From IMG/VR virus record IMGVR_UViG_2645727555_000014: a stretch of DNA of 23,702 nt. One strand, given 5' to 3'. This DNA is from a virus (Duplodnaviria; Heunggongvirae; Uroviricota; Caudoviricetes). The notes under the pieces are model-generated. The model was not told where the DNA came from. It saw only the letters and a list, made by a program, of their open reading frames with translations, and ran no database searches. Position numbers and translations under genes: made by a program. This document shows positions 3,222-21,395 of this stretch, piece after piece (the first letter of the stretch is position 1; each line of letters starts with the position of its first letter).

Positions 3222-3227
3222 GTCTCA

Positions 3228-3271
3228 CCATTTGTGTTAGAAAATACATATTAATTATCTAACACAAATGG
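3228..3271. promoter_or_regulatory. perfect 13-bp inverted repeat (ccatttgtgttag / ctaacacaaatgg) carrying the TTTTCTAACACAAA box, immediately upstream of rdgC
   Basis: 3228-3240 is the exact reverse complement of 3259-3271, with an 18-nt AT-rich spacer. Lies between the stop of the spike-like gene and the rdgC start codon; no T-run follows on the minus strand. Confidence 0.4.
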
Positions 3272-3280
3272 GTGCATTTT

Positions 3281-3934
3281 CTATCCTTTCTTGAAATCGA
3301 AGTTGCTAGCAGTGGCCTGAAAGGTTCCTCCTGCCTTGAAAGCTATGTCTCCGTTAGCGGTGACAGCAATATTTTCCCCTTTAACATTGATGTTGTTGGC
3401 TGATTTGACGTTAACACTCCCTCCTGCATTCACGATTACATCAGCCGGACCAATGATATATATCTGCCCGGACTCATTCATGCCAATCCTTGAGCCTGCT
3501 GCCGTATTGGCAATTTCATAGCCGCCACCAGCAGTTCGTACTTCAAGAATATTGTTGCGGTGAATAACGAAGTCTTTCGTTGCTGAGATTTTGGGGCGGG
3601 GAGGTGCTCCATCTACTTCCGGCGGCGTCCAGCCGTTGCCTTTGCCAGATGCTTCTGGTGCAACGTTTGGAATTCCTCCCGGTGCATCCTGAGCGGCACC
3701 AACTATCATTGGGCGTCTGGTGTCTATTCGACCGTTAACATCTAAATAAGGAAACTCTACCCAGACCAGGTCACCTTTGACTGTGGGTACAAAAGCGTTT
3801 CCGATGGGTAACAGGTATTCCGCCCAGGGTAGATCGTCATCAGGAACGCCATTCCAGTCAGGTAAAACACGGACTTGAGCACGCATAAGCCCTGCCGGGT
3901 GCACAGTTCCAACAATTTGCGCTCTACGCTTCAT
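3281..3934 (-). CDS. phage protein with gp5/gpV-like N-terminal OB-fold (putative baseplate spike-like), C-terminal Gly/Asn/Val-rich repeat region
   Basis: N-terminus GTVHPAGLMRAQVRVLPDWNGVPDDDLPWAEYLLPIGN...KGDLVWVEFPYLDVNGRIDTRRPMIVGA resembles the OB-fold of phage baseplate spike proteins. C-terminus has repetitive NVKSANNINVKGENIAVTANGDIAFKAGG. ATG 3934 overlaps the upstream stop (ATGA). Confidence 0.45.
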   Translation of the reverse strand: MKRRAQIVGTVHPAGLMRAQVRVLPDWNGVPDDDLPWAEYLLPIGNAFVPTVKGDLVWVEFPYLDVNGRIDTRRPMIVGAAQDAPGGIPNVAPEASGKGNGWTPPEVDGAPPRPKISATKDFVIHRNNILEVRTAGGGYEIANTAAGSRIGMNESGQIYIIGPADVIVNAGGSVNVKSANNINVKGENIAVTANGDIAFKAGGTFQATASNFDFKKG

Positions 3935-4911
3935 TTGTTCGGCACTCCCAATATCATTCGTGTTGTGTAGCCTACGCGGTCTTCAAAGTGCGCAACATTT
4001 TTTACTATCAGCTTACGGGGCATTGATTCATCAATGCGGTTTTCCTGGTCATAGCGGTATACGATAATCTCTATCACCATCCCCGGTTTTATATCAGGAT
4101 TGCCTGCGACTTCTATATCCATTTTGGGGACGAGAGACAGCTGCATATTGCGAAGAGTTTCCATATCAGAGTCGGATATATAACGCACTGGGAGTGAGCT
4201 ATCGCCATATTCGACGTAGCCATCGGTCATGGAATACCCAACAAAACGATATTGATTCTTTGCTGTTGTCGCATGTTCCTGTTGGAGTAGGCGCATTTTG
4301 GACAAAGTGTATTCTGCTTTAGGGTTATTCCCCTCGTAGGTAAATGATGGCGTTTGCTTCATCAGATCAGCCAGGGTGTAAAAGTTAAATTCCCCCCGGC
4401 ATACCCAACATAATGCACCTTTGTCTCGCGCTATCTCCGAAAGCATTTTTGACGGTTTGTCACCGGCATTCAGATGATATGTAACTGCGCGTTTTAGCAC
4501 GCTGCTGGTAATTTTAAGCTTGCCGGAATATGCCTTGAATATAGCGTCTGGTGTTTTGTTGGTATGTAAATTTGTGCGCGGGGAGGGGATCTTAAACCTG
4601 CGCACGTCTTCACTGACAGCAATAACGGTAACAACATCACCAGCCAGCATTGCAGACGTAACAAAGAAATCTGTTTTAAAAGTGCCTGCATTACCGTTTG
4701 GATCGCCCATTTCAGCCACCAGCGATGCACCGTATTTGGCTTTCCAGTCATCAATTACGGTGCCGGTAGCGTCATGAATTTCCAGTTTTAGCAAAGGGGC
4801 TTTGAGGCTGGTTTTTTCTACATATACTGCGGTAAAAATCCAGTCTCGTGGCACTTTGTTATCGTTAATGAGCACTGACTGTAGAAAATATTGTTGTAAC
4901 TCCTGGGCCAC
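3931..4911 (-). CDS. hypothetical phage protein (326 aa)
   Basis: Long ORF, translationally coupled both sides. First in-frame ATG is far inside, so a GTG start at 4911 is inferred (GGGGTGA upstream). No family recognised. Confidence 0.55.
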   Translation of the reverse strand: MAQELQQYFLQSVLINDNKVPRDWIFTAVYVEKTSLKAPLLKLEIHDATGTVIDDWKAKYGASLVAEMGDPNGNAGTFKTDFFVTSAMLAGDVVTVIAVSEDVRRFKIPSPRTNLHTNKTPDAIFKAYSGKLKITSSVLKRAVTYHLNAGDKPSKMLSEIARDKGALCWVCRGEFNFYTLADLMKQTPSFTYEGNNPKAEYTLSKMRLLQQEHATTAKNQYRFVGYSMTDGYVEYGDSSLPVRYISDSDMETLRNMQLSLVPKMDIEVAGNPDIKPGMVIEIIVYRYDQENRIDESMPRKLIVKNVAHFEDRVGYTTRMILGVPNK

Positions 4912-4914
4912 TTA

Positions 4915-5682
4915 TCACCCCATAGATATCGAGGTTTCGGTAATAATACGTTTTGCGTCCAACTCCCATGCTGTGATCACGTCTGCAATCACACTTATCG
5001 GCGCTTGTGTGGCATAAATACGCTCTTCTCCAATTGGTGCTGAAACATCCGTAAAGCCGACTTCTTTGGAATCCTGTATCGAGCAAATCAGCGGGACCGG
5101 GACACGAACAAGGTGAGTGGTTGCTTCAAATTGTGTACCTGTCATCAGGCGAAGCCGTGCGCCCAGCGAATTACACATCAGACTCATGGTCGCTTTATCA
5201 GTTGCCATTAACGTAACGTCATACGTCAGAATGGCCTGGGTGTATTCCAGTTCTGCTAAAGGCATTCCGGTATCCGGTTCGCAAAAACTGGCTACTTTTT
5301 TGCGGTCAATCTGCTGATCATCGTTGATATAATTGATATCCATAGTGCGTGAGATATTGACCAGGGGGAGAGCATCCCGGTTAATGTTCTGGTTTTCAGG
5401 TTTTCTCCCTTGCCCGGCATTTGCGCGACGAACTGCTTTAAGAAACTCGATCGCATTGTCGAAACGGGCCACATAGACACGCTCTGCTGGTGGACGATTC
5501 AGGAATGACGCAAAGCGTTTTTCTTCCGGCGCGGGGGCCACCAGTAAGATATCAGAAAAAATGTTGCTGATTAGCGTCGCAAACGCGTTATCCACGTTTT
5601 CAAAGCCCGTGGTCTGGAATTTTCCTGTGCGTGAGGTTTGCCATTCACCTGTTCGCGCCAGGAGGGTTTTATTTGAAGTCAT
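4915..5682 (-). CDS. hypothetical phage protein (255 aa)
   Basis: ATG at 5682 overlaps the upstream stop (ATGA). No family recognised. Confidence 0.55.
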   Translation of the reverse strand: MTSNKTLLARTGEWQTSRTGKFQTTGFENVDNAFATLISNIFSDILLVAPAPEEKRFASFLNRPPAERVYVARFDNAIEFLKAVRRANAGQGRKPENQNINRDALPLVNISRTMDINYINDDQQIDRKKVASFCEPDTGMPLAELEYTQAILTYDVTLMATDKATMSLMCNSLGARLRLMTGTQFEATTHLVRVPVPLICSIQDSKEVGFTDVSAPIGEERIYATQAPISVIADVITAWELDAKRIITETSISMG

Positions 5683-6470
5683 TCGATCACTCCGTTTTGA
5701 GTCGTATCAAAATTCCTAGCAGGTATGCAGTAGTAAAGCGAACCAACATGCTGTGTGCCGTAGCTAAAAATACGGTGCACGTACCACCAGCGGCGCGCTA
5801 CGCCGTTTACCATCTCTTCATTCCATTCAAGAATTGAGCCGACGGGGACGTTATTTGCTGCAATACGCAGAATCAGAACATCATCGGTTAAGCCATCCTG
5901 CTCACCGTCTGCGTCAATCGCATGGAAAGAGTCACGCCCGTCAGGGTTATCCAGCACATAAACGATTTCAGGTTCCTGGTAAGTCAGTTCGCGTTGGTTG
6001 TTATCCAGTTCAGTGAATGACTCTTCTCCTGTTTCGTCGCTGACTACCCCATATGTGCCAACATCTGGTCGATATAAGAGAGCCTGAAACGCGTCTGGGC
6101 TGGATTCAATAATCAGCATCCAGTCTGCGCGGATTTGGTCGTTAAAGGCTTTATGCCCGTTATAGCGTGCTTTTAACTGTGGAGTCGGTTCTCTGCCAGC
6201 CAGGGAAGATGGAAGTATGGCTATATCTGATTCGCCAGCATCCGGAGTAAGGCCACCGTTGCTATCAGCAAAATTATCATGGCTATCAGCTTTGGCGGCG
6301 GGTTGCTCTTCCAGAATGCTGAATGAATCCGAACCTGTATTGCCATGTTCCGGCGCGCCTCCTGCATTCGCTTCAATCGGCGCTGGCGTTTCTCTCTGCG
6401 TGCTGTCATGTTCTGACTCCTTACTTGCCAGGTTTGCATCGTCAGCAAACCATTCGTCAAAACGGCCCAT
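5679..6470 (-). CDS. hypothetical acidic phage protein, first gene of the leftward operon
   Basis: ORF runs to 6482 with a TTG; start set at ATG 6470 preceded by AGGA. Low-complexity acidic central region. Stop overlaps the next start. Confidence 0.5.
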   Translation of the reverse strand: MGRFDEWFADDANLASKESEHDSTQRETPAPIEANAGGAPEHGNTGSDSFSILEEQPAAKADSHDNFADSNGGLTPDAGESDIAILPSSLAGREPTPQLKARYNGHKAFNDQIRADWMLIIESSPDAFQALLYRPDVGTYGVVSDETGEESFTELDNNQRELTYQEPEIVYVLDNPDGRDSFHAIDADGEQDGLTDDVLILRIAANNVPVGSILEWNEEMVNGVARRWWYVHRIFSYGTQHVGSLYYCIPARNFDTTQNGVIE

Positions 6471-6559
6471 AAGCATCCTCAAAGGTCGATCTGTCAGGTA
6501 TCGAAAGGAAGATTTTCTGGAGATTGTGATTTTGGATGAAGGAGGAGGAATTCATAAAA

Positions 6560-6587
6560 TGCACTTGCGCACAGTGCAACGGTGCGC
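6560..6587. promoter_or_regulatory. overlapping palindromes in the divergent promoter region upstream of higB (candidate HigA operator)
   Basis: TGCACT-tgcgcac-AGTGCA (6560-6578) and gcgcac/gtgcgc (6567-6572 / 6582-6587), located about 45-70 nt upstream of the higB start. Confidence 0.3.
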
Positions 6588-6632
6588 TATAGTTATGGCA
6601 TTCGGTAATCATCACGGAGGATCAAATGACTA

Positions 6633-6935
6633 ATGACCAAAAAAATTAACATAAAGGATTTCAGGGATGCGTGGCTTGATGATTTTTTTGAATTTTCAAC
6701 ACCACATAGAAAGATACCTCCTGATATTCATATGACATTGTCACGGAAGTTGGACATTATCAATGCCGCAACTACCTGTAAGGATTTAAGATCACCACCA
6801 GGTAATCGGTATGAGGAACTGTCAGGGAAGCTAAATGGCTATTCATCAGTAAGGGTGAATAAGCAATATAGGTTAATTTTTAAGTGGGTTAACGGAAAGG
6901 CCGAGGACTTGTATCTCGACCCTCACAAATACTAA
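6633..6935 (+). CDS. higB: type II toxin, HigB family (RelE/ParE superfamily, plasmid maintenance killer type)
   Basis: 100 aa, N-terminus MTKKINIKDFRDAWLDDFF and ...YRLIFKWVNGKAEDLYLDPHKY are typical of the HigB family. Followed by a HigA-type HTH antitoxin gene (toxin-first order typical of higBA). Confidence 0.8.
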   Translation: MTKKINIKDFRDAWLDDFFEFSTPHRKIPPDIHMTLSRKLDIINAATTCKDLRSPPGNRYEELSGKLNGYSSVRVNKQYRLIFKWVNGKAEDLYLDPHKY

Positions 6936-7005
6936 AACAGATACCCGGTTACGGACCGGGTTCTGACCAGAGTCCACTTAATACGCACGCTAGTAAGGGC
7001 AAAAA

Positions 7006-7344
7006 ATGAAACAGGCAACCAGAAAACCGACGACCGTAGGTGATATCCTGCTGTACGAATACCTGGAGCCGTTAGAGCTGAAGATCAACGAGTTGGCAGA
7101 AATACTTCATGTTCATCGTAACACCGTAAGTGCTCTTGTTAATAATAATCGTAAGCTAACGATGGATATGGCATATCGCCTGGCAAAAGCATTCGATACT
7201 TCTGTAGATTTTTGGATTAATCTTCAGACCGCAGTAGACCTGTGGGAAGTCGAAAATGATATGCGCGTTCAGGAAGAGTTAAGTCGTATCAATACTGCTG
7301 AAAAATTTATTTCTCAGCGGAACCTGAATAAAAAAGCAGCCTGA
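7006..7344 (+). CDS. higA: type II antitoxin HigA (XRE-type HTH)
   Basis: 112 aa; TVGDILLYEYLEPLELKINELAEILHVHRNTVSALVNNNRKLTMDMAYRLAKAFDTSVDFWINLQTAVDLW fits the HigA addiction-module antidote family pattern. AAGGG SD upstream. Confidence 0.85.
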   Translation: MKQATRKPTTVGDILLYEYLEPLELKINELAEILHVHRNTVSALVNNNRKLTMDMAYRLAKAFDTSVDFWINLQTAVDLWEVENDMRVQEELSRINTAEKFISQRNLNKKAA

Positions 7345-7365
7345 TATAGTAAAACACATACAAAA

Positions 7366-7394
7366 AGCCCACTTAGCAAGTGGGCTTTCCTTTG
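7366..7394 (+). terminator. hairpin after higA (terminator or attenuator)
   Basis: Stem agcccact (7366-7373), loop tagca, stem agtgggct (7379-7386), then ttcctttg. The next start codon (7401) follows directly. Confidence 0.5.
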
Positions 7395-7400
7395 TAATTA

Positions 7401-7760
7401 ATGAACATTAAACCTATCCGTACAGAACAAGATTATGAGGCCGCACTGCGTGCGGTCGAACCGATGTTCGATAACGAACCGGAAATGAATACTCCGGAAG
7501 GTGATTTCTTTGAGGTTATGAGTCTTCTCATTGAGGAGTACGAGAAAAAACATTACCCAATTGAGCCACCATCACCTATTGAGGCCATTAAATTCCGTAT
7601 GGAACAGCAAGGGCTGACCGTGAAGGATCTGGAACCGGCGATTGGTAAGTCAAATCGTGTTTACGAAGTGCTAAATGGGACACGAAATTTGACGTTACCT
7701 ATGATTCGCCGTTTACATTCCCAGCTTGGCATTCCTCTTGAAAGCTTGGTTGGTATTTGA
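7401..7760 (+). CDS. HTH DNA-binding protein resembling E. coli K-12 HigA (YgjM)-type antitoxins; no cognate toxin adjacent
   Basis: 119 aa. IRTEQDYEAALRAVEPMF and C-terminal GLTVKDLEPAIGKSNRVYEVLNGTRNLTLPMIRRLHSQLGIPLESL resemble the K-12 HigA (YgjM) HTH region as I recall it. No SD; an in-frame TAA sits just upstream at 7395-7397. Confidence 0.65.
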   Translation: MNIKPIRTEQDYEAALRAVEPMFDNEPEMNTPEGDFFEVMSLLIEEYEKKHYPIEPPSPIEAIKFRMEQQGLTVKDLEPAIGKSNRVYEVLNGTRNLTLPMIRRLHSQLGIPLESLVGI

Positions 7761-7822
7761 GTTTGGTGGTCTGGATGACCGCTATTTTCATAAAATAGAT
7801 ATTAGAAATCACGGTAGTTTAT

Positions 7823-8551
7823 ATGAATACAGATTCATCAACAGAAAAATTGACTGAAAATGATCTAATCAAAGTATCTTTTGGAGATGCCATAAAAGAC
7901 AAGCTTTTTAATAAAGTGTTTGCATATATATTAATTTCTTTTCTAATTATTAATTGGAAAGATATACTAATATTGATGAAGTCAAAGGATGATATCCTAT
8001 ATACTTTATCTGTAACATTTGTTGGAGGTAAGATTCCTCTAGTTTATGAAGGCGTTTTGTCTCCTTGGCTTTATCATTTTTGCTTGCCATTTATTTTTGG
8101 AATTATTGCATCAATTGCAGCTCCGATTGTCACTCTTTGCGTATCAAAGCTAACAAGTAAAATATATACAGAGATAAGGTATTTGGATGCCGACATGGAT
8201 CAAAATAAAAGAAAGGCGTTGCAAATAAAAGAGACTGAAATAATAAAAAGTATTAATGATACACAATTCAACAAAAGAATTATGGATGAAAATAAAAATG
8301 AACTTGAGAGATTGCTTAGGCAGCAAAAAGAGATTATGGCGGCAATAAAGTTATTATATGATGATGTTGGAGTTATCATTGAGCTTTTTAAAAGTAGAGG
8401 GGTTGGTATTGACTCCCCAGAAAAGTTATATGATTTTGTAATGGCAATAAAGAAGACTTCGCTTTATAATGGCGATCATGATTTTAATAAATTGGTTGCT
8501 GATATTTCAAATTTATTTGATAAAACGGAAATTGATTTTTCAAAAAGATGA
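7823..8551 (+). CDS. hypothetical membrane protein: two predicted TM helices followed by a long charged coiled-coil-like C-terminal region
   Basis: 242 aa; hydrophobic segments VFAYILISFLIINW and LYHFCLPFIFGIIASIAAPIVTLCV, then a K/E/D-rich region (...KRKALQIKETEIIKSINDTQFNKRIMDENKNELERLLRQQKEIMAAIKLL...). Gene is visibly AT-rich relative to flanks. No family recognised. Confidence 0.65.
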   Translation: MNTDSSTEKLTENDLIKVSFGDAIKDKLFNKVFAYILISFLIINWKDILILMKSKDDILYTLSVTFVGGKIPLVYEGVLSPWLYHFCLPFIFGIIASIAAPIVTLCVSKLTSKIYTEIRYLDADMDQNKRKALQIKETEIIKSINDTQFNKRIMDENKNELERLLRQQKEIMAAIKLLYDDVGVIIELFKSRGVGIDSPEKLYDFVMAIKKTSLYNGDHDFNKLVADISNLFDKTEIDFSKR

Positions 8552-8552
8552 A

Positions 8553-8575
8553 AGCCTAGCCTAGGCAGCTAGGCT
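8553..8575. terminator. hairpin between convergent genes (probable terminator for the minus-strand gene)
   Basis: 8-bp stem agcctagc / gctaggct with a 7-nt loop. On the minus strand it is followed by TTCATCTTTTTG. Confidence 0.45.
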
Positions 8576-8584
8576 ATGTGTGGT

Positions 8585-9778
8585 TTATGCTTTTTTTACA
8601 TACTCCATGAACATTTTTTCAGCTTGTGCTGGTGGTGTTCCAGCCATGACAAGCGCATCAATGAACGCCTGCTTCTTCAGTGCGAACTGATCGGCAAGGC
8701 GTTGCTGAAGCTCCTTGTTTTTCTGTTTCTCACGTTGCAAGGCCGCTTCTTTTGCTGCCGCCCGTCTTTTCTGTGCGTCTGACAACTTTCTGGCCTTGGT
8801 CAATTGGTCACGTAGTTTGTCGATCTTGCCGTTGTCCTTTGCCAGTTTTGTACTTAAAGCGGCCTGGCGCTTCTGATAGAGCCTCCATTCGCGCTTGGCA
8901 GCGTCAACGTTTGTTTTACTGTTGCGATTGCGATTAAACTCCCTCTCGTCTTCTTTTGAGAAGTGTTTGGTTGTACGGCGGCGATCGTCACCAAATGCAA
9001 TTTGCGTTGCGGCCTTTTGTAACGCACGAGCAATACTCATTTGCCAACTAGCGGACTGTAACCGCGTCATTGAGTGGATCACGTGTTTACAGGCGACGCC
9101 TTGTAGCTTAGGGTTACGAACTTTTGGATAGGCGTATTCTTTTGGCGGGGTCAGGGCAAAGTTACCCGCAGTAGCGATGTAACGATACCAGTATTGATGA
9201 CGACCACAGTCACAATCGAAAGACACCCGCCCGGCGCACAGTGATTTAGTGATTTTCAGAGCTGATTTATCGTCTTCTGCGATGTCATCGACCATCTGAT
9301 CCCATTCTTCAAAGCGTATCCGGACGATATGGTGCTGGTGGACGGATATATCCGATGCTTCTACGCGGATATTAATCACGTTGTGGCGAAGAGATACGGG
9401 TGTAGCTCTTTTGATACCAGATCCGTCATCCACGGCGTTATTTGCACGCTTAATATCGATTGCCTGGCTGGATGCCACCAGCTGGGCGTATGTGATGCCA
9501 GCCGTCTTGCTGTCATATTTTTCGCGTGTTTTACTCCGTAGCTTTTCGAAACCTTTCAGGTCGTCTCGCGTGAAGAACGTGCCGCCTTTTTTCTTCCCTA
9601 ACTTGAGAATATCTTCGGCGGATTTGTTCCTCAGTCTACCTGGCGTCAGCGTCCGGTGAGCTTGTCGGCGCTTACGGGTTTGTTCTTTCCTGATAAGGTC
9701 GAATAAACGCGTGAAGTCCTTAGAGGACAGGCCGTCAGTGATATAGCGCCCGTCCTGGTTTTTCAGGAAATCAGGCAT
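8585..9778 (-). CDS. hypothetical phage protein with SWIM-like zinc-finger signature and Lys/Arg-rich coiled-coil C-terminus
   Basis: 397 aa. FDCDCGRHQYWYRYI...VACKHVIHS gives a C-x-C-x(n)-C-x-H spacing. C-terminal ~100 aa strongly basic and heptad-like (KREWRLYQKRQAALSTKLAKDNGKIDKLRDQLTKARKLSDAQKRRAAAKEAALQREKQKNKELQQRL). Confidence 0.55.
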   Translation of the reverse strand: MPDFLKNQDGRYITDGLSSKDFTRLFDLIRKEQTRKRRQAHRTLTPGRLRNKSAEDILKLGKKKGGTFFTRDDLKGFEKLRSKTREKYDSKTAGITYAQLVASSQAIDIKRANNAVDDGSGIKRATPVSLRHNVINIRVEASDISVHQHHIVRIRFEEWDQMVDDIAEDDKSALKITKSLCAGRVSFDCDCGRHQYWYRYIATAGNFALTPPKEYAYPKVRNPKLQGVACKHVIHSMTRLQSASWQMSIARALQKAATQIAFGDDRRRTTKHFSKEDEREFNRNRNSKTNVDAAKREWRLYQKRQAALSTKLAKDNGKIDKLRDQLTKARKLSDAQKRRAAAKEAALQREKQKNKELQQRLADQFALKKQAFIDALVMAGTPPAQAEKMFMEYVKKA

Positions 9779-10100
9779 TTTCTATCTCCGGTTCCGCGCT
9801 CGCGTAATCACGGATCTTGTTCCTCAGCCATGCCACATCAGGAAGAGTTAACGTGGTCCCAGCGGGCATTTCTTCCATTTCTGACTCATGGCCCACCAGC
9901 ACCCGGAATACCCAGCGCAAATCTGCATTGCCATACGCCCTGTAGGCTGCAAGGTCTGAACGATATACTTCATCAATCTTTATCGTGTACTGGAAATTAT
10001 CAGAGTGATACTCCGATACCCGCTTAATCATTTCCTGGTGAAACAGCGCACGAAAAATATCGTCTTCAATGTACCTATCGTCGAGTCTGCTATAGCCCAT
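9771..10100 (-). CDS. hypothetical phage protein (109 aa)
   Basis: ATG at 10100 preceded by GAGG. Its 3' end overlaps the start of the downstream gene by 8 nt. No family recognised. Confidence 0.55.
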   Translation of the reverse strand: MGYSRLDDRYIEDDIFRALFHQEMIKRVSEYHSDNFQYTIKIDEVYRSDLAAYRAYGNADLRWVFRVLVGHESEMEEMPAGTTLTLPDVAWLRNKIRDYASAEPEIENA

Positions 10101-10293
10101 AACAAAGCCTCTCAGTCATAACCTGGGGGAAACTGTATGCAGGGTGTGAAATGCGAGAAACAGACAGGCCACCAGTTCAGGGGGATGGGGTTCATAAATC
10201 CCCTCACTGGTGACAAGTGACTTTCATTAATCTTTATGCGGGGGCCAGCTTCATTTGCTGGCATTAGATTAAAAATCAAACGGAGTAAATGAC

Positions 10294-10428
10294 ATGGATG
10301 TTATCTTCGAATTATTAATGCTAATTGATCTGTTTATGAACGCTTCATTGACCACTCAAATACTCGCGTCAATATTTTTGTTACTCTTCTACCTTGTATT
10401 GAGGGAGTTAACAAAGCTACTAATGTGA
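10294..10428 (+). CDS. possible small hydrophobic peptide (44 aa)
   Basis: Below the ORF-track size cutoff; found by eye. GGAG 9 nt upstream of ATG. Product MDVIFELLMLIDLFMNASLTTQILASIFLLLFYLVLRELTKLLM is almost entirely hydrophobic. Ends at the stop of the convergent gene 10429-11082. Could be spurious. Confidence 0.3.
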   Translation: MDVIFELLMLIDLFMNASLTTQILASIFLLLFYLVLRELTKLLM

Positions 10429-11082: not shown

Positions 11083-11427
11083 TGTCCTTCCTCCACGGAT
11101 GACGGATACAAAAAAAGGCCGCACATGGCGGCCTGCTTTGGCGTTATGACTCCCTACCGCGCTTCGGCTGAAAGTTAATCGTCAAAAGAACCTTCAACGG
11201 GAGCCGTTAGCGCGATGGATTATGTGCAGTTTGTGATTTCCAAAATAGTGTCAACCACTTTTTATGGATTTTATTTTTTGACCGAAATTTGGCCTAAATC
11301 ATGTTGATTTGGCTGATTATTTTTATAACATAAAAGTCATTTTGATTGCATGAAGGACGGTGCAGTGAAGTTAAGGGTTTTAGGGACCGCGCTCGCGGCT
11401 AAGATGGTAAAGTATGGAGTTAATGAA

Positions 11428-12261: not shown

Positions 12262-12268
12262 TTGACAT

Positions 12269-12297
12269 AGCAGGCTTACTATTAAGCCTGCTTTTTG
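12269..12297. terminator. bidirectional rho-independent terminator between convergent genes
   Basis: 10-bp perfect stem agcaggctta / taagcctgct with loop ctat, followed by a T-run (12293-12296). Confidence 0.8.
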
Positions 12298-12300
12298 GCT

Positions 12301-12660
12301 TTACTCGGTAATAGTTTTGCAGTTGTTTTGATTTAATGACAATCCTAGCTTGCTAGCAGCCAACTCATTTTCTGTGTGAGAACCAGCAAAAATGAAGCCT
12401 TGTTTTATCTTATTTACGGTGAAATATTTATTATACATGAACGCCCAGATAAATGAGGCAATCCACGGGCCAATTCCGGCTGTGAGGAATGCCAGTATCA
12501 GCATCACTACAAATACCCCAATAAAAGTTATAAAGTCTTTCCTGAACAAAGCTGGAAAAGCACCAAACAAGAATGTAGTCCAGGAAAAACCATAAAAACC
12601 GGTGATTGATTCGCCAGTTTGAGGGTTTTCAAGTTTAATTTTAGTAGCCACGATTACCAT
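12301..12660 (-). CDS. small inner-membrane protein (two to three predicted TM helices)
   Basis: 119 aa; hydrophobic segments FSWTTFLFGAFPALF, FIGVFVVMLILAFLTAGIGPWIASFIWAFMY. Start may be ATG 12660 or the GTG three codons downstream. Family not identified with certainty. Confidence 0.55.
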   Translation of the reverse strand: MVIVATKIKLENPQTGESITGFYGFSWTTFLFGAFPALFRKDFITFIGVFVVMLILAFLTAGIGPWIASFIWAFMYNKYFTVNKIKQGFIFAGSHTENELAASKLGLSLNQNNCKTITE

Positions 12661-12796
12661 CCTTTTACATAAAAAACATAGAGTTATAGTGCTGTGTGAG
12701 ATTCTAATGTTACTAATTTACACTTTGTAATGCAATTAAATAACTTTAGGCAGTGGAAGTAACTATTCGTGGCAGACTATCGTTAAGATCTTTCAA

Positions 12797-13081
12797 TTAT
12801 GGTTGCTGTAAGTGGAGGGGAACAGCCTGTTCTATCATCTCGCGTATCAAGCCAACTTCAAGTAGTTCCTCGTATTCCCAGTATCTGTTTGTCACCAGAT
12901 CCAGGCTGGCTATGACCTTGTGCCGGTCATTCGGCATAGCCAATTTTTCTGCTATAACCATCAGTGAAAACTCTTCATCCAGTAGAATTTGATAGCAGTT
13001 TTTTGATAGTTCCACTTCCCTTATGAGACTGAAACGTCGCTGGATTGTGGCAGCAGAGTAAGTGAAATCTATTTTCTTCAT
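12797..13081 (-). CDS. hypothetical protein (94 aa)
   Basis: ORF-track M corresponds to a TTG codon at 13081 with no clear SD; first in-frame ATG is ~40 codons in. Real start uncertain. Confidence 0.35.
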   Translation of the reverse strand: MKKIDFTYSAATIQRRFSLIREVELSKNCYQILLDEEFSLMVIAEKLAMPNDRHKVIASLDLVTNRYWEYEELLEVGLIREMIEQAVPLHLQQP

Positions 13082-13113
13082 CGTGCGGAGAATCCGGTTA
13101 TTTAGTAGTTAAA

Positions 13114-13133
13114 GCCCCGGACAGGCCGGGGCA
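13114..13133 (-). terminator. GC-rich hairpin downstream of the antirepressor gene
   Basis: Stem gccccgg / ccggggc with a 5-nt loop. On the minus strand it is followed by TTTAACT (a weak U-tract). Confidence 0.4.
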
Positions 13134-13140
13134 ACAGTAA

Positions 13141-14082
13141 TTAACTAACAATCCAGTCCGTAGCAACAACATCCTCTGGAGCTAAATCAATCGCATGGAT
13201 TTTCCCATCCCGGATAGTGCGCCAGTGCTTTCGTGATCCACCTTCGGGCCACACCCATACACCTTCAGGCCAGGATGCTCGACGGCATACGATTGCATAG
13301 CCTGTTTTAATCCTCTCTCTGGCGGTATGCAACGACAGGTTTGCCTTTGGACTTTCAGGCACAGGATGGTGGATTGCCTGAAACATCCCCATCTTTGGAT
13401 GATACCAGCGTTTATTGCGTGGTTCTGCCTCCGACATCACCTGCTTAAAGGCTTTCCGGAAGGGGGCCAGGGCCACAATGGAGCGTCGCGCAAGCAAACC
13501 ATCGGGAGTTAAAAACTCATGCGTATCGGTGGGAATCCGGTAAGCGTTGACCAGGTTGCGGCATTTGGCTTCAGTCAGGCCACATTTCGCCGCCAGCTGG
13601 CGGTAGCCAATGTAGCCTTCCGGAATATTGCCTTTCTTTATTTGCTCGAGTGTTTCAGCGACCATCGATACTTGTGCTGATACCTCGGCTACCTGGGCAT
13701 TTACGGCGTTGATCCGGCGTTCATGCTCAAGATGCATTTGCGCCATTTCAGCCAGGATTTCGGCTTTTGATTTTAACTGTACCCGGGCATTCTCCAGTTC
13801 GCGCCAGCGGTCCACCAGCCGGGCGGTAAATTCGGGAGAGAGCTGCGCGACGACGACAATACTATCGCGCTTGCCTTGTTCGCCTTCGAAGACGTAAGCC
13901 TCGACACTACGGCGTAGTCCTAAATTATTGATTTTTTCGAAAACCTCAATTTGAGGAAATCGGACAACGCCGCCTTTGGCTAATGTCTCAATAGTGCGTT
14001 TCACATTGTCATGACGCTTACCTACCAGTTCTGCGATCTCAATACTGGTCATTGTCGCTTTGCGAGAGATGGGCAGATTCAT
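13141..14082 (-). CDS. phage antirepressor, Rha family N-terminal domain with C-terminal extension
   Basis: 313 aa; N-terminal TMTSIEIAELVGKRHDNVKRTIETL matches the phage regulatory protein Rha family signature as I recall it. GGAGG SD; ATG overlaps the stop of the upstream small ORF (TGATG). Confidence 0.8.
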   Translation of the reverse strand: MNLPISRKATMTSIEIAELVGKRHDNVKRTIETLAKGGVVRFPQIEVFEKINNLGLRRSVEAYVFEGEQGKRDSIVVVAQLSPEFTARLVDRWRELENARVQLKSKAEILAEMAQMHLEHERRINAVNAQVAEVSAQVSMVAETLEQIKKGNIPEGYIGYRQLAAKCGLTEAKCRNLVNAYRIPTDTHEFLTPDGLLARRSIVALAPFRKAFKQVMSEAEPRNKRWYHPKMGMFQAIHHPVPESPKANLSLHTARERIKTGYAIVCRRASWPEGVWVWPEGGSRKHWRTIRDGKIHAIDLAPEDVVATDWIVS

Positions 14083-14297
14083 CAGTGTACCTCCACGCAG
14101 TTCATCGGCAGATTCCAGTAATTGAGGATCTCCATCGCATCAAGAGTGAAGCGAGCAGCAAAAATGCAGGGTTCTTCGGGAAGGTATGAGCGCGCTTCTG
14201 CTTCGGTTGCAGCCATGACGTAGATATACAGGTGTTTTTGGCAGGAATAGAAACGCCAGATGAATTCAGAATGAGTTGGGGTAGGGATAGTAGCCAT
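14082..14297 (-). CDS. small hypothetical protein (71 aa), first gene of the antirepressor operon
   Basis: Strong AAAGGAGG SD 8 nt upstream of ATG 14297; translationally coupled to the Rha-family gene. Confidence 0.55.
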   Translation of the reverse strand: MATIPTPTHSEFIWRFYSCQKHLYIYVMAATEAEARSYLPEEPCIFAARFTLDAMEILNYWNLPMNCVEVH

Positions 14298-14455
14298 ATT
14301 GGCAGCCTCCTTTGACTGTGAACGATACCACCGCCGAAGAGACCAATCTTACTGGCGGTGGACTGTGTGGAGTTGGTCTTACCGGCGTCAAAGGGAACCG
14401 GCGCTTCCGAAGAAGCCACCACACAGCCCACCATTGATAGGCGTGCGAGTGCGCC
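14298..14455 (-). promoter_or_regulatory. highly structured leader / candidate regulatory RNA upstream of the antirepressor operon
   Basis: On the transcribed (minus) strand: 13/14-bp long-range helix (14357-14370 with 14419-14432), GCUUC-UUCG-GAAGC hairpin (14403-14416), an 8-bp stem ccaccgcc/ggcggtgg (14328-14335 / 14354-14361) that competes with the long helix, and GAUUGGUCUC in the loop of that stem. Confidence 0.35.
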
Positions 14456-14460
14456 GACAA

Positions 14461-14483
14461 CAAAAAAGACGCTTGTGGCGTCT
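14461..14483 (-). terminator. rho-independent terminator (minus strand)
   Basis: Minus strand reads AGACGC-cacaa-GCGTCT followed by TTTTTTG. About 105 nt downstream of the small minus-strand gene ending at 14589. Confidence 0.5.
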
Positions 14484-14588
14484 ATGTGTCGCCTTTGACA
14501 TTACCGGGAGACCAATCCCGGCACCCGTTTTTCTAAGGTGCCGTAGAAATATACCCCACGATAATGCCAGGGCGCAACAGTCAGTATT

Positions 14589-14756
14589 TTATGCTTTGGC
14601 GGATTTCTTCCGGGCTTGCTTGCAGGCGTAGGCCATTGCTTTAGCTTTCACTTCATCCAGCTTCCCGGTGATCACTTCTTTTCCGAGAGTGACAAACCAG
14701 TCATAGCAACCGCCAGTAATGTTCTTGATTTGAAAGTTGAGGTAGCGAACAGTCAT
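14589..14756 (-). CDS. small hypothetical protein (55 aa)
   Basis: Below the ORF-track size cutoff; found by eye. GGGGGTG SD about 7 nt upstream of ATG 14756, stop TAA at 14589-14591. Product MTVRYLNFQIKNITGGCYDWFVTLGKEVITGKLDEVKAKAMAYACKQARKKSAKA. Confidence 0.45.
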   Translation of the reverse strand: MTVRYLNFQIKNITGGCYDWFVTLGKEVITGKLDEVKAKAMAYACKQARKKSAKA

Positions 14757-14887
14757 TTTGACACCCCCAGCGCGAGTAAAGAATGCAGATTATCGCGTGA
14801 GTGGTGGACGACGAGTGATGGGAAAAGACTGTAGCTGTTCATAGTGTTGTGACTCCTTGCTTTCGGAGCCGCCATCGACTGTTCCAC

Positions 14888-14980
14888 GGTCTGGCGGCGG
14901 CGCAATAAAGGCTGGAACACCGTGAGTCAACGGGGGCTTTTCAGCCACCTATATTGCACCGCCATAGGTCTGGCGGCGGC
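14888..14980. repeat. two copies of a 14-bp direct repeat GGTCTGGCGGCGGC (each followed by CAATAA-like sequence) in a ~250-bp non-coding region
   Basis: Exact copies at 14888-14901 and 14967-14980, spacing 79 bp. No ORF of significant length on either strand in 14843-15087. Confidence 0.6.
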
Positions 14981-15087
14981 AATAATACGAAAAACTAAAC
15001 AGTTTGTCTCAAAAAGTTGACCGGTGTGCCAATCAGTAGTGAATGTACATCGGAGAAATTTACAATTCAACTTAAAATGTTAGAAAA

Positions 15088-15666
15088 CTAATTTATCAAT
15101 TCAATCGCCATCTGATACAACGCCATTTCATCGGCATTGTGCCGTATGAAATCAGCTTTTCCGCCTATTTTTCCATCAGCATGAACAGGGACCAGCCAGG
15201 GATATTGTTCTCGGACCTCGGCTGGCGCTGCGTACTGGTGGTGCCATTTACACAAAGGGAGGACATATTTATGCGCGTTCTCTGCCGTTCTCCCGAAGAT
15301 ATGGTGCAGGGATACTACTGGGCTATGTTGCCCGTGAATATGGCAGGCAATGCAGGGGAGAGTACCGATAGCGGTCTGTATCCGGCGTTCATCGGCTGTG
15401 AGTGATCTGCCCTTCAGGCCGCGTGACGTGTGTGTTTTTTTGGGCGGAGCGGATACAGCTTTATCTTTTCTCCGCTGTTCATATTGCTTTGCTTTTTCAA
15501 TTTTCTTTTGCCGATATTCAGGCGATGCGGCTTTTTCTCTCGCTCGCTGCTGCTGGCGTTGAGCTTGTTGAAGGCGCTTTGCCCTTTGTTCCTCTCGCCA
15601 GGCCGGGTCAGCCAATTTTTGCATGGCTTTTTGTCTCTGTTTCTCCCAATAACTCTGTTTCTGCAT
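15088..15666 (-). CDS. Ref-like (recombination enhancement function) HNH-type nuclease
   Basis: 192 aa. Highly basic N-terminal ~80 aa (KQRQKAMQKLADPAWREEQRAKRLQQAQRQQQRAREK...), then SRGLKGRS, CIACHIHG and LCKWHH His/Cys motifs, resembling phage P1 Ref as I recall it. Confidence 0.6.
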   Translation of the reverse strand: MQKQSYWEKQRQKAMQKLADPAWREEQRAKRLQQAQRQQQRAREKAASPEYRQKKIEKAKQYEQRRKDKAVSAPPKKTHTSRGLKGRSLTADERRIQTAIGTLPCIACHIHGQHSPVVSLHHIFGRTAENAHKYVLPLCKWHHQYAAPAEVREQYPWLVPVHADGKIGGKADFIRHNADEMALYQMAIELIN

Positions 15667-15730
15667 GATGGCAGTCTCTTACTTTTCAACGATTTTTCTA
15701 TGATTGATCAAAATGGTTAGGTATTCAAAA

Positions 15731-15759
15731 TTGATTTTCTAACACAAAACATTAATATC
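15731..15759 (+). promoter_or_regulatory. promoter-like region for the rightward operon, containing the TTTTCTAACACAAA box
   Basis: TTGATT (15731-15736), box TTTTCTAACACAAAAC (15735-15750), TAATAT (15753-15758). Precedes the first ORF of the plus-strand operon by about 30 nt. Confidence 0.4.
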
Positions 15760-15786
15760 ATTCCTGATAACTGTTTGGAGGACATG

Positions 15787-15939
15787 ATGCTTATAGCTTT
15801 AAGTGCGATCCACCAGCCATCTGTGAATGAAATTGGCCTGTTCTATGTGTTGTTTTTCGGGGCGTTGGCGCTACTTGAGCTTGGTATTGAGCTTTTCGCA
15901 GTGCTTATGTTTTGCGTCACGATTTTGGGGAAATTTTGA
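15787..15939 (+). CDS. possible small hydrophobic membrane peptide (50 aa), translationally coupled to the DUF4406-like gene
   Basis: Below the ORF-track size cutoff; found by eye. GGAGGA 4 nt upstream of ATG 15787. Product MLIALSAIHQPSVNEIGLFYVLFFGALALLELGIELFAVLMFCVTILGKF. Stop TGA overlaps ATG 15939 (TGATG). Confidence 0.35.
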   Translation: MLIALSAIHQPSVNEIGLFYVLFFGALALLELGIELFAVLMFCVTILGKF

Positions 15940-16550
15940 TGGTGAAACGTGTTTTGAAAATTTACATCGCGGGGCCGATGACTGGTTATCCAGATTACAA
16001 CCGTGCTGCGTTTAATGCGAAAGCGAGCGAGCTGATGGCTGAAGGGCATATCGTTCTGAATCCAGCTGTGTTACCTGGTGGCCTTTGTCAGAGTGAATAC
16101 ATGGATATTTGCCTGGCAATGGTGCGTTCTGCTGATGCGATCTACTTGCTCAATCGATGGGAGGAATCGATTGGTGCTCGTGCAGAGCACGCGCTGGCTG
16201 AAAAGCTGGGGCTGACTGTAATTTATGAGTCACCAACCAACATTGAATGCCAGGTTGCTCCGCATATTTACCGGGAACTGGTCAATGCACTGCGTGATAT
16301 CGCTGCTGTATATCACGGTACAGAACAGCTTCGTGAGCGTTTAGCCCATACCATTTCCTATTACCTGTCTTTATCTCATGAGCACAAGCTCCGCCAGAAG
16401 GTAATGATCAAATTTATCATGAGGTTATCGAAATCCCTGGCAAACGCCGATCCAAAGAATCCATTACCGAAAGAGGCAATGAATTACCTGAAGTCCTGCA
16501 ACGTTGTTTCTGAAGATGGCGTTCTTTTGGTTAGAAGGAGTTCTGCGTGA
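15939..16550 (+). CDS. DUF4406-like (nucleoside 2-deoxyribosyltransferase-like fold) protein with additional C-terminal region
   Basis: N-terminal ~100 aa (KIYIAGPMTGYPDYNRAAFNAKASEL...NPAVLP...ADAIYLLNRWEESIGARAEHALAEKLGLTV) fits DUF4406 as I recall it; about 100 further residues follow. Start set at ATG 15939 rather than 15912 because of the overlap with the small ORF stop. Confidence 0.65.
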   Translation: MVKRVLKIYIAGPMTGYPDYNRAAFNAKASELMAEGHIVLNPAVLPGGLCQSEYMDICLAMVRSADAIYLLNRWEESIGARAEHALAEKLGLTVIYESPTNIECQVAPHIYRELVNALRDIAAVYHGTEQLRERLAHTISYYLSLSHEHKLRQKVMIKFIMRLSKSLANADPKNPLPKEAMNYLKSCNVVSEDGVLLVRRSSA

Positions 16551-16864
16551 GCTGGCGGGGATGGGGAAGGGCAGAAATCATGATACTCCGCCAGTGCGCC
16601 GGGACTATGACAGTCGAGAGTATTGGGAGGCTGATCGGGCGTACCGGTAGTGCTGTCAGAACCAAAGCGCGGCAACTGCGGATCTGCATGATTCTGAAAG
16701 GAGACTTTCACCCGTCAGCCAAATACCGGCAGGGCGATATAGAACTGGCACGGCAGCTTCATCGGTGTGGTGTTCCCCGCCGTGAGATCGCGGAAAAACT
16801 CGAAATGCCCCTAGGCATGATTAATCAGTACGTTTATTTCGAAAGGAGAGTGTATGAAGTCTGA
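16547..16864 (+). CDS. hypothetical protein with HTH-like segments
   Basis: GTG start overlapping the upstream stop (GTGA). Segments TVESIGRLIGRTGSAVRTKARQL and GVPRREIAEKLEMP look helix-turn-helix-like. Confidence 0.5.
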   Translation: MSWRGWGRAEIMILRQCAGTMTVESIGRLIGRTGSAVRTKARQLRICMILKGDFHPSAKYRQGDIELARQLHRCGVPRREIAEKLEMPLGMINQYVYFERRVYEV

Positions 16865-17342
16865 AGGTTTAACGCCCGCACAACTGGCAGAGCGTAACGC
16901 TGAGTATGTAACGGAAATTTCCCGACTTGAGAAAGCGTGTGCTGCGCTGGCGGCGGAGAATGCTGGGCTGAAACATGCAATGGCTGTAACTCTTGAGCAT
17001 GTGTCGGTCACGGATGCAGGTCAGGCCGGAGTTGCTGCAATGATTATCAACGATGCCCTGCACCACAGCGAAACTCCAGCCACCGATGCTTTTCTGGCTG
17101 AAATTCGTGCGGCGGCTCGCAACGAGGGGATTAACTATACCGCAAGCCGTCTTGCTGCTGCTTTCAACCACGGATTTATCAATAAGTCTTTACGTGAAGT
17201 TTTCGACGTTACACGCATGATTTTGTCAGCGAAAGAAGAGTTGGCTAATGAAGCGCATCCGATTGATGGCCTGTCTGGTGAATATGCGGAGAAATCCCTT
17301 GAAGAATGGGCGGAACAGATTCGCAAAGGAAGCAGCCAGTGA
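16854..17342 (+). CDS. hypothetical phage protein (162 aa)
   Basis: Strong AAAGGAGAG SD before ATG 16854. No family recognised. Confidence 0.55.
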   Translation: MKSEGLTPAQLAERNAEYVTEISRLEKACAALAAENAGLKHAMAVTLEHVSVTDAGQAGVAAMIINDALHHSETPATDAFLAEIRAAARNEGINYTASRLAAAFNHGFINKSLREVFDVTRMILSAKEELANEAHPIDGLSGEYAEKSLEEWAEQIRKGSSQ

Positions 17343-17614
17343 ATATCGACACGACAATAACGATCGATACGCTCCTAAATACCGGTCTGGCACTTCTCGG
17401 TTGGCTTTACATCATGTCCCGTACCTGGCGATGGCTGGGTTCCATTTTCCTAAAAGAGTGGAAAAAACGGCGCAAACAGGAACTACGCCAGAAGGCATTA
17501 GAAGCGTTCTATGACGCATTTGAGCTTAGCCGCATTGAACCAGGCACAACAGCCAGAATAGCGACAAAAGGCGACCTGATGATAGTGATGTTCAGACAGG
17601 AGAAAACCAAATGA
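17339..17614 (+). CDS. small hypothetical protein with one predicted TM helix
   Basis: Start inferred at GTG 17339 overlapping the upstream stop (GTGA); the ORF-track start at 17306 would overlap the previous gene. Hydrophobic segment LLNTGLALLGWLYIM. Confidence 0.45.
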   Translation: MNIDTTITIDTLLNTGLALLGWLYIMSRTWRWLGSIFLKEWKKRRKQELRQKALEAFYDAFELSRIEPGTTARIATKGDLMIVMFRQEKTK

Positions 17615-17835
17615 CAGAACAGACGATGACAAATCGCGAACTTGTTGATGCCGCGATTGAACTTGCTGGCGATTTTTATTCCATGATGGGTTACGAGCAT
17701 CGACCTGGTTTTAAGTATTGGGAGTTACCGCATCCGCAAGAACAACAGGTGTTTGAAATGGCCTGCCGTGCTTTTGAGGTTATTCGCGGTTCTGATGTGA
17801 TGGAGGCCGTTGCCGACTTGGAGGATGAAGAGTGA
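17611..17835 (+). CDS. hypothetical phage protein (74 aa)
   Basis: AGGAG upstream of ATG 17611; stop overlaps the next start. Confidence 0.5.
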   Translation: MTEQTMTNRELVDAAIELAGDFYSMMGYEHRPGFKYWELPHPQEQQVFEMACRAFEVIRGSDVMEAVADLEDEE

Positions 17836-18143
17836 GCATCATTAAAGAAATGCCGGTAGAACGTGATGAATATGGCTGCTGGACACATCCGGAGTATGAG
17901 AAGTTTTGCGCAGGTCGTGAATATATTTCCACTGAGGAATTTGACGCCTGGATGAAGGAAAATAATCTTCAGTGGACTATTCGCAGTATGGATGAAGATG
18001 ATTTTGATCTGGACGCAGCTGGACCCGATATTGCCGCCTGGGAACCGGAGCGACCAGAGGGTGAAGGCTGGTTTGTTGGCTCTATCCATGACACTGAAGA
18101 TGGTCCAGTTTGTATCTGGCTGCGGGAGAAGGTTGCCGCATGA
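17832..18143 (+). CDS. hypothetical phage protein (103 aa)
   Basis: GTG start with GGAGGA 7 nt upstream; stop overlaps the phosphatase start (ATGA). Confidence 0.55.
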
Positions 18144-18832
18144 TCCAGGCTATGCATGAAGTGAATTTATATAGCCGTATTGATGGTTCTGGCTACAGAA
18201 ACATATGGGTTGTTGGTGATCTGCATGGTTGCTACACCAGACTGATGTCCGAACTCCATCGTGTGGATTTTGACCCGGCGCAGGATTTACTGATATCGGT
18301 TGGCGACCTTATCGATCGCGGCACCGAAAATGTTGAATGCCTGGAGCTATTGCAGATGCCCTGGTTTCGGTCGGTTATGGGAAACCACGAGCGATTAATG
18401 ATCGATGCGTTAAGTCCTGATGGCAACGTGAATAACTGGCTAATGAATGGCGGGCAATGGTTCTTCATGCTGGACGCTGATCAGGAAATATTAGCCAGGG
18501 CGCTGGTGGAGCTGGTAATACGTCTGCCCTATATCATTGAGTTGAACACCGGGCATGAAACTATCGTTATAGCCCATGCCGACTATCCAGGTGGAGAGTA
18601 CCAGTTCGGTAAGGATGTGTCGCTTTTTGATGTTGTCTGGTCGCGCAGTCGCGTCGGTGATTCGATAGATGGCATTGGTGGAGAAATCACAGGCGCAGAT
18701 CGCTTTATCTTTGGGCACACACCGGTACGAAGACCAAAAGCATACTGGAATCAGCACTACATAGACACTGGCGCGGTTTTTTGCGGAAATCTGACGCTAA
18801 TGCATGTGAAGGGAGGGCAGCTTAAAGTCTGA
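18140..18832 (+). CDS. serine/threonine protein phosphatase, lambda PPase family (metallophosphoesterase)
   Basis: [18 protein letters not shown]...[22 protein letters not shown]...GNHE...NGGQWFF...IIEL...VIAHADYP...FIFGHTP...[14 protein letters not shown] is near-colinear with phage lambda phosphatase as I recall it. Start set at ATG 18140 (matches the lambda N-terminus) rather than 18110. Confidence 0.9.
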
Positions 18833-18929
18833 TCAAATCATTTACGCACTCAAAATACGTTAGGACATTGATTTTAGTTTTCTAACATATTATTTTACCA
18901 CTCGGAACAAAACAGAGTCGGTATGCATT

Positions 18930-21034: not shown

Positions 21035-21210
21035 TGCGTGTGGCATGTATCGGCTTGTTACCGTACCCGACTCGTTTTTGGGCTTCTGCGCTAATTGCAA
21101 AGCCACATGTCCTGATGGCTGACAACATCATCCCGGCACCAAAGCGCCGCCATACCGGTATTGCAGCGGCACGACGAGCAGCAAAGAAACGCAGGAGAGC
21201 AAAACGATGA
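21034..21210 (+). CDS. possible small basic protein (58 aa)
   Basis: Below the ORF-track size cutoff; found by eye. Strong AAGGAGG SD directly upstream; ATG overlaps the upstream stop (TAATG). Arg/Lys-rich C-terminus. Stop overlaps the next start (ATGA). Confidence 0.3.
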   Translation: MRVACIGLLPYPTRFWASALIAKPHVLMADNIIPAPKRRHTGIAAARRAAKKRRRAKR

Positions 21211-21395
21211 AAAACCGTAAAGCAAAGATTCTGTTAGTTCGTAGAAACGCCCCTAGCGTCTGGCAGTGGGTGAGACTCAGCAACCGACGGATGGGGTTGA
21301 TGAAATATTACGGGATGATGGATTGTGGTTTTTGCAAAAAGCCCAGCGCGGCGCAAAACCGCTGGAAAAACCATTTGCGCACTAAAGGAGAGTGA
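21207..21395 (+). CDS. small hypothetical protein (62 aa)
   Basis: ATG overlapping the upstream stop; basic. No family recognised. Confidence 0.4.
   Translation: MKNRKAKILLVRRNAPSVWQWVRLSNRRMGLMKYYGMMDCGFCKKPSAAQNRWKNHLRTKGE

Follow-up and report, generated by a model that had tools for sequence, protein, structure and literature searches.

A short sequence box, TTTTCTAACA, recurs in a 23,702-nucleotide (nt) stretch of viral DNA (IMG/VR record IMGVR_UViG_2645727555_000014; this whole stretch is referred to as the window), which derives from a plasmid prophage that is D6-like and belongs to the P1 family. We consider it very likely that these boxes represent the conserved core of predicted operators of a D6-type C1 repressor, a distant homologue of the C1 repressors of phages P1 and P7. 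The original prediction, that a single prophage regulator uses the box as a common operator or activator site, is supported by our analysis and narrowed to a putative D6-type C1 operator. This analysis demonstrated the motif together with its statistics and conservation, its location at positions orthologous to those of P1 operators, and its co-variation with the C1 clade; we infer that C1 would bind the sites and repress by its binding, and where the promoters would lie. An operator function is favoured over an activator site, because the motif of the late activator Lpa is a different sequence located at different promoters.

When we compared the window with known elements, Escherichia phage D6, a P1-family plasmid prophage, showed 95% identity, and D6-like Escherichia coli plasmids of ~90 kb showed 96-98% identity; the lambdoid label for the element is wrong. 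D6-like phage-plasmids are common in E. coli, Salmonella, and Shigella, this region being present in approximately 118 plasmid records. A window position corresponds approximately to the D6 position minus 60,881.

Frequency and form of the box

The search of the window confirmed the repeated box, with exact copies of TTTTCTAACA at 3235-3244(-), 15078-15087(-), 15735-15744(+), and 18878-18887(+). The expected number, calculated from 100 dinucleotide-preserving shuffles, was 0.09, and the frequency of the box is thus far above what composition predicts. All four exact boxes are intergenic and are positioned between gene 5 and rdgC, between the ref stop codon and the isrK-C4-icd-ant operon, between ref and the rightward operon, and between ppp and the DUF968 gene, respectively. 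Each site is oriented in the same direction as the genes downstream of it.

A further copy with one mismatch, TTTTATAACA at 11321-11330, had also been proposed, but it is found at chance level and is unsupported. When one mismatch was allowed, three additional matches were obtained in the window: the inverted partner at rdgC (3255-3264) and the matches at 11321 and 12050, the latter two comparing with a chance expectation of 2.15. The position weight matrix (PWM) score of the 11321 copy (11314-11333(+) as a PWM site) was 12.9, as against 24-29 for the accepted sites, and shuffled sequence gave ~3 hits with a score of at least 8. This doubtful copy is also without the invariant C of the TCTAA core.

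We then extended the search to the complete D6 genome, in which the word TTCTAACA is present in 12 copies. Alignment of the D6 copies yielded an asymmetric motif of ~19 nt, AAATTAGTTTTCTAACAYA, of which the box is the core, and the information of this motif peaks on TTTTCTAACA and not on a dyad. The PWM built from the D6 copies detected 15 strong sites in D6, and 14 of them are intergenic, although non-coding DNA comprises only 10.2% of the genome (binomial P = 2e-13). The D6 sites are located at c1 (12 nt before the ATG), lpa, repL, both icd-ant operons, both ends of ref, hrdC-dmt, and pmgS, and two of the strong sites are degenerate, TTTTCTAATACAA directly 5' of lpa and AAATTGCTAACATAG directly 5' of repL. 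The D6-like plasmid NZ_CP031917 contains the same set of sites at the same places, together with a D6-type c1 gene.

Several of the sites occur as two inverted copies. The paired sites have the form TTAGR-N16-TCTAA, in which exactly 16 nt separate TTAGA or TTAGG from the TCTAA that follows; the cores are thereby 21 bp apart, and the two halves point outward. In the window, such pairs were observed at rdgC, ref/orf88, and DUF968, and in D6 they were observed at icd-1 and lpa. N16 inverted partners were present at 5 of 21 candidate cores, while the chance is 0.002 per site (P = 1e-9). The partners of the sites at ref (TTAGG, 15717-15721) and at DUF968 (TTAGG, 18860-18864) had been overlooked earlier. 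Single sites with no partner are the window site that overlaps the ref stop codon and the D6 sites at c1, pmgS, and orf117. The "13-bp palindrome" described 5' of rdgC is one such TTAGR-N16-TCTAA pair. Its inverted partner is genuine and the repeat is longer than claimed, with 18-nt arms (3228-3245 and 3254-3271) that are 94% complementary and contain 14 perfect nt (CCATTTGTGTTAGA / TCTAACACAAATGG).

Two explanations that involve no phage regulator can be weighed here. The first is chance recurrence, or functionless remnants of a small repeated or mobile sequence. The exact match is short, which would fit this explanation; however, four copies were reached in 0/100 shuffles, the conservation is position-specific across diverged elements, the similarity between sites extends over only ~20-35 bp, and flanking repeats are absent. 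We regard it as practically negligible. The second is a generic promoter or host-factor element, which could be an UP-like or spacer stretch rich in A and T, or a site for H-NS, IHF, or a SlyA-type protein. For SlyA, the mini-dyad TTAG-N4-CTAA is similar to the consensus TTAGCAAGCTAA. In favour of this explanation, the box is rich in A and T and adjoins -35-like TTGAT hexamers, and H-NS binds the P1 ref regulatory region (PMC4713147). On the other hand, ten bases do not vary among elements with flanking identities of only 68-85%, the information is asymmetric, and P1, which lives in the same hosts and regulates orthologous genes, contains no copy of the box. A host-factor site is highly improbable since P1 lacks the box in the same hosts, and the SlyA-like mini-dyad was ruled out by the asymmetric conservation together with the absence of the box in P1.

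Comparison with the C1 operators of P1

It has been known that P1 C1 acts on 22 dispersed and asymmetric 17-bp operators with the consensus ATTGCTCTAATAAATTT and controls repL and lpa (PMC8546580), and that ref, ssb, dmt, kilA, and ban are under C1 control in P1 (PMC4713147). When we compared the D6-type sites with the P1 operators, using the positions annotated in the P1 record, which are experimentally based, counterparts were found at c1, lpa, repL, c4-icd-ant, ref, the ref 3' end, hrdC-dmt, and pmgR/S. Oc1a-e, whose target is c1/coi, correspond to D6 196-215, Olpa (target lpa) to D6 4629-4648, and OrepL (target kilA-repL) to D6 22464-22483. Oc4 (Op51), which controls c4-icd-ant, has counterparts both at D6 21260-21279 and at window site 2, as the site at 15075-15094 is called below. 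Omat, which overlaps the ref stop codon in P1, also corresponds to site 2, which overlaps the ref TAG. Oref (target ref) corresponds to window site 3 (15712-15747), Odmt (target uhr-hrdC-dmt) to window site 1 (3228-3271), and OpmgRa/b and OpmgT, with the targets pmgR/pmgS, to a cluster at D6 8910-10334.

The two sets of operators are also alike in organization. The P1/P7 C1 operators (Op2, Op51, Op53, Op68, Op72, Op86, Op94, Op99, and others) are, as the D6-type sites are, many dispersed intergenic copies on a plasmid prophage of ~90 kb. Both types are asymmetric sites of ~17-19 nt with a TCTAA core in the same orientation and occur in monovalent and bivalent forms, and the repressors of both types belong to the same protein family, PF27008. 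The specificity is different, being TTTTCTAACA in the D6 type and TTGCTCTAAT in the P1 type. The bivalent geometry differs as well: the P1 operators Oban and Oc1ab each consist of two 17-mers whose AAATTT tails overlap, which places the cores ~12 bp apart, whereas the D6-type halves point outward with cores 21 bp apart. The window boxes do not match the P1/P7 consensus and have only the TCTAA core and its orientation in common with it. Since the P1-type sequence is absent from the window boxes, they are not operators of P1 specificity but D6-type ones. Among the accessory immunity genes, no homologue of Lxc or Coi was recognised (for the former, at the gene next to ulx), and the D6 gene at the lxc position showed no similarity to P1 Lxc.

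The type of box follows the type of repressor. The word TTCTAACA occurs 12 times in D6, 0 times in P1, and 4 times in the window, while the P1 core word TGCWCTAAT occurs once in D6, 18 times in P1, and 0 times in the window. The D6 C1 protein (345 amino acids) is 21% identical to P1 C1 (283 amino acids) and is ~60 amino acids longer, with an additional C-terminal helical region. Both proteins are in Pfam PF27008 (Phage_P7_repressor_C1); a search with the local Pfam copy gave no domain in either of them. We also examined related elements with diverged C1 proteins. In the metagenomic elements L007 and L008, whose C1 proteins are 51% and 44% identical to D6 C1, respectively, TTTCTAACA is located 5' of c1, lpa, pmgS, the orf117 homologue, and the DUF968 gene, at the same positions as in D6 but amid diverged flanks. 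In L017, which belongs to the P1 clade (C1 54% identical to P1 C1), CTCTAAT-type sites are located 5' of lpa and of its DUF968 gene. Judged from these sequences, operator type tracks repressor clade, and the positions of the box are kept in homologous as well as in far more diverged prophages. In the best alignment of the motif profiles, ATTGCTCTAATAAATTT and WRTTTTCTAACAYAWWT were in the same orientation with their TCTAA cores superposed, and 12 of 500 column shuffles aligned as well. As a separate observation on the phage-plasmid segments of these elements, which are C1 neighbourhoods, Chi (GCTGGTGG and its complement) is the commonest 9-10-mer in L007, L008, and L017.

Another phage-encoded regulator might bind the box instead of C1, and the candidates are a small helix-turn-helix (HTH) protein (7401-7760), a HigA-like antitoxin (7006-7344), and the late activator Lpa. 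HTH proteins are indeed encoded in the window, and Lpa is present in every D6-clade locus that has the box. However, the late operons of D6 carry another motif, AAATCACA followed after ~10 nt by TAnnnT, which is located 5' of R/S, sit, prt, gene 7, ddrB, gene 23, and mat, and the box is absent at the late promoters of D6 except in the spacer that gene 23 and orf52 share. The box also bears no relation to AAGTGACTT, the Lpa box of P1, and none of these candidates has the distribution expected of the regulator. Antitoxins of toxin-antitoxin systems normally regulate only their own operon. The site 12 nt before the c1 start codon and the sites at the exact positions of P1 C1 operators point to C1, and we therefore consider binding of another phage regulator very unlikely.

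The reading of the box as an Lpa or late-promoter box was ruled out on the same comparison, as the -22 boxes of P1 are AAGTGACTT and the D6 late operons have AAATCACA. The Lpa-dependent late promoters of P1 resemble the present case in that they too have a short box recurring at numerous promoters, in phages of the same kind. They have a 9-bp -22 box located ~4-5 nt 5' of the -10 hexamer and drive structural and lysis operons, while the window boxes differ in sequence and in gene set. AAATCACA is probably the Lpa box of the D6 clade. It was observed in the window at 6525-6532(-) and 11232-11239(-), and in D6 at 38135, 45511, 25241, 27747, 54144, 19215, and other positions; the D6 operons concerned include pmgB-sit alongside gene 7, mat, R/S, prt, ddrB, and gene 23. 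The lone match of the P1 late-promoter type in D6 or the window, GACAAGTGACTTTCATTAATCT, lies between gene 26 and mat (window 10207-10233(+)).

The four window sites and their predicted promoters

Site 1 (3228-3271, strand unassigned) is a predicted bivalent operator located 5' of rdgC and the dmt genes. The PWM half-sites are 3251-3232(-) and 3248-3267(+), and the cores are TTAGA at 3237-3241 and TCTAA at 3258-3262 with 16 nt between them. Both halves, TGTGTTAGAAAAT and AATTATCTAACAC, are kept in relatives that are 68% identical at rdgC. The first gene 3' of the site is rdgC (2316-3221(-); Pfam RdgC, E 4.8e-102), a homologue of P1 hrdC, and site 1 is the positional equivalent of P1 Odmt, located 5' of uhr-hrdC-dmt.

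At this site only, and as an addition to operator function rather than a replacement of it, an RNA hairpin formed on read-through transcripts of the late gene-5 operon might block access to the Shine-Dalgarno sequence of rdgC or stabilise the end of the upstream mRNA. The 18-nt stem folds at -23.6 kcal/mol with a z-score of -4.4 (window 3205-3285(-)), and CACC pairs with GGUG of the rdgC Shine-Dalgarno sequence in this fold. Compensatory changes were found at 3 of 17 pairs, and the outer arms co-vary in two diverged relatives (68% identical). Nevertheless, the comparison consists of five sequences only, and the stem has at its core the very box that is found elsewhere with no good partner. The hairpin would not be an intrinsic terminator, because there is no U-tract 3' of the stem, and a hairpin model leaves sites 2-4 unexplained. 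We regard this additional layer as unlikely.

Site 2 (15075-15094(-), AAATTAGTTTTCTAACATTT) is a predicted monovalent operator; no inverted partner was found at this site. The site includes the ref stop codon TAG (15090-15088) and stands at the head of the leftward isrK-C4-icd-ant operon, and its positional equivalents in P1 are thus both Omat at the ref stop codon and Oc4/Op51 5' of c4-icd-ant. The site is kept in a plasmid of Escherichia marmotae. The leader of the icd-ant genes contains a C4 antisense RNA gene (14351-14438(-); Rfam RF01695, 75.3 bits, E 2.6e-13) of an immI-like operon and, directly 5' of it, an isrK-like small RNA of the Hfq-binding type (14462-14541(-); Rfam RF01394, 60 bits). 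Since these two RNAs are found in the icd-ant leader, site 2 heads a module of the P1 immI type. The cargo of the operon comprises the icd-like gene (14082-14297(-), from the D6 annotation) and a Rha-type antirepressor gene, ant (13141-14082(-); Pfam Phage_pRha and D6 annotation). In D6-like elements there are two separate icd-antirepressor modules, at D6 20693-21279 and at window 13141-15094, with a box 5' of each; the window module is the second of the element and the one with the Rha-type antirepressor.

Site 3 (15712-15747(+)) is a predicted bivalent operator between the divergent ref gene and rightward early operon, with a strong half at 15728-15747(+) and a weak partner, and is the positional equivalent of P1 Oref. 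The ref gene (15088-15666(-)), which encodes a RecA-dependent nuclease (Pfam RecA_dep_nuc, E 1.3e-34), therefore has a predicted site at each end, namely sites 2 and 3. At site 3, the E. marmotae plasmid retains the block GTTAGAnAnTCAAAATTGATTTTCTAACACAAAA unchanged amid diverged flanks, and the left arm there is a perfect TGTGTTAGAAAA.

Site 4 (18857-18890(+)) is a predicted bivalent operator located 5' of the DUF968 gene, a homologue of P1 pdcB (18930-19925(+); Pfam DUF968, E 4.1e-45), and its strong half is 18871-18890(+). When the window was compared with L008 in the region 5' of the DUF968 gene, ATTGATTTTARTTTTCTAACAYATTA was the sole conserved block, and the TTGAT element of the site is also kept in L008. 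In the E. marmotae plasmid, sites 3 and 4 both have a perfect TGTGTTAGAA(AA) as the left arm. This plasmid is ~85% identical to the window; the boxes are intact in it, and the adjoining leader and 5' coding sequence have diverged. A search for an operator swap within otherwise near-identical DNA was not successful: P1-like phages have 95%-identical pieces (ppp and downstream genes), but the gene order after ppp differs. Since the spacer of site 4 consequently has no direct counterpart in P1, it was compared with L017, in which a CTCTAAT-type operator occupies the orthologous position.

Two further gene groups of the window were noted. A homologue of glnS (glutaminyl-tRNA synthetase) is present at window 16-705(+) and is annotated in D6 and in the E. 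coli plasmids, an unusual cargo for a phage-plasmid. The region 6633-7760(+), between tail gene blocks, encodes a RelE/ParE-type toxin, a HigA-type HTH antitoxin, and another small HTH protein, and none of these genes has a box nearby.

Each window site has a -35-like hexamer on one side and a TA-rich -10-like hexamer on the other, which by analogy with P1 suggests promoter occlusion. The TTGAT(T/A) element that had been noted next to several copies of the box is present at three of the four loci (15731-15736, 18868-18873, and 15099-15094 on the minus strand) and absent at rdgC, and the TTGAT elements are best read as the -35 hexamers of candidate promoters. At site 1, the promoter-like match is TAGAAA, 18 nt, GATAAT (9/12), and this is the only site that passed the consensus scan. 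The candidate promoters at the other sites, each scored 8/12 by eye, are TTGATA, 17 nt, TTTAAG at site 2 (unreported by the scan); TTGATT (15731-15736), 16 nt, TAATAT (15753-15758) at site 3 (below the scan threshold); and TTGATT (18868-18873), 17 nt, TATTTT (18891-18896) at site 4 (unreported by the scan).

Here, we need to consider several points that weigh against the C1 operator reading. The c1 gene is located outside the window, and the link to C1 is drawn from the complete relatives D6 and plasmid NZ_CP031917. Promoters were called only weakly, with mostly negative consensus scans, and the putative -35 hexamer of site 2, TTGATA, reads TTAATA in the E. marmotae plasmid. In addition, the arms of site 1 co-vary outside the core, which a pure protein-site model does not predict, and the likeness between the P1 and D6 motifs is modest (P ~0.02).

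Based on the observations on the D6-type sites, we suggest the following model of C1 repression. In the lysogen, C1 would occupy sites within or beside the -35/-10 region of weak candidate sigma-70 promoters, the motif being present either alone or as an inverted pair with TCTAA cores two helical turns apart. Occupation of these sites would silence rdgC-dmt, the C4-icd-antirepressor operon, ref, the rightward early operon, and the DUF968 gene, and elsewhere on the element C1 would silence lpa, repL, pmgS, and c1 itself. Upon loss of C1 activity, all the controlled genes would be released together, as in P1.

Predicted structure of C1 and significance of the operator word

We also generated AlphaFold2 models of the two repressors independently, with a predicted local distance difference test (pLDDT) score of 70 for D6-type C1 and 76 for P1-type C1. 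The top PDB match of both models was the E. coli Tus-Ter DNA complex (Foldseek E 1.5e-6, TM ~0.3). The C1 profile gave no match among PDB sequences, so there is no Tus signal at the sequence level, and no paper linking C1 and Tus was found in the literature collection searched. Tus is a monomer on an asymmetric site, and P1 C1 is reported to be one as well. They share no sequence similarity, and their functions differ, Tus arresting replication forks while C1 represses transcription. As the resemblance comes from models of moderate confidence (pLDDT 70-76), we treat it as a lead only. A speculative extension, to which we give limited credence, is that the C1 family is a transcriptional offshoot of the Tus fold that clamps asymmetric sites as a monomer, that D6 represents a second specificity with a back-to-back geometry, and that the rdgC site may double as a hairpin gating translation. 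If this is true, a Tus-like monomer would explain the asymmetry of the operators, the bivalent sites would be two monomers in opposite orientations, and the back-to-back geometry of D6 with cores 21 bp apart would help to work out the recognition code.

Dispersed C1 operators are textbook P1 biology. Accordingly, the kind of regulation described here is not new; what is new is the operator word of the D6 clade, its list of sites, and its bivalent geometry. We found no published description of the box or of D6 operators, although the D6 genome paper (Gilcrease & Casjens 2018), which was outside that search, may already list the sites.

With the operator word, the C1 regulon of any P1-family element and its immunity type could be predicted in one line, and the word would explain why D6-type and P1-type elements should not cross-repress. 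For the study of how the unusual monomeric C1 reads DNA, it would provide a second natural specificity. The list of operators is also a list of the genes that would be freed on induction, and it includes ref, whose P1 counterpart enhances killing by DNA-damaging antibiotics (PMC4713147).

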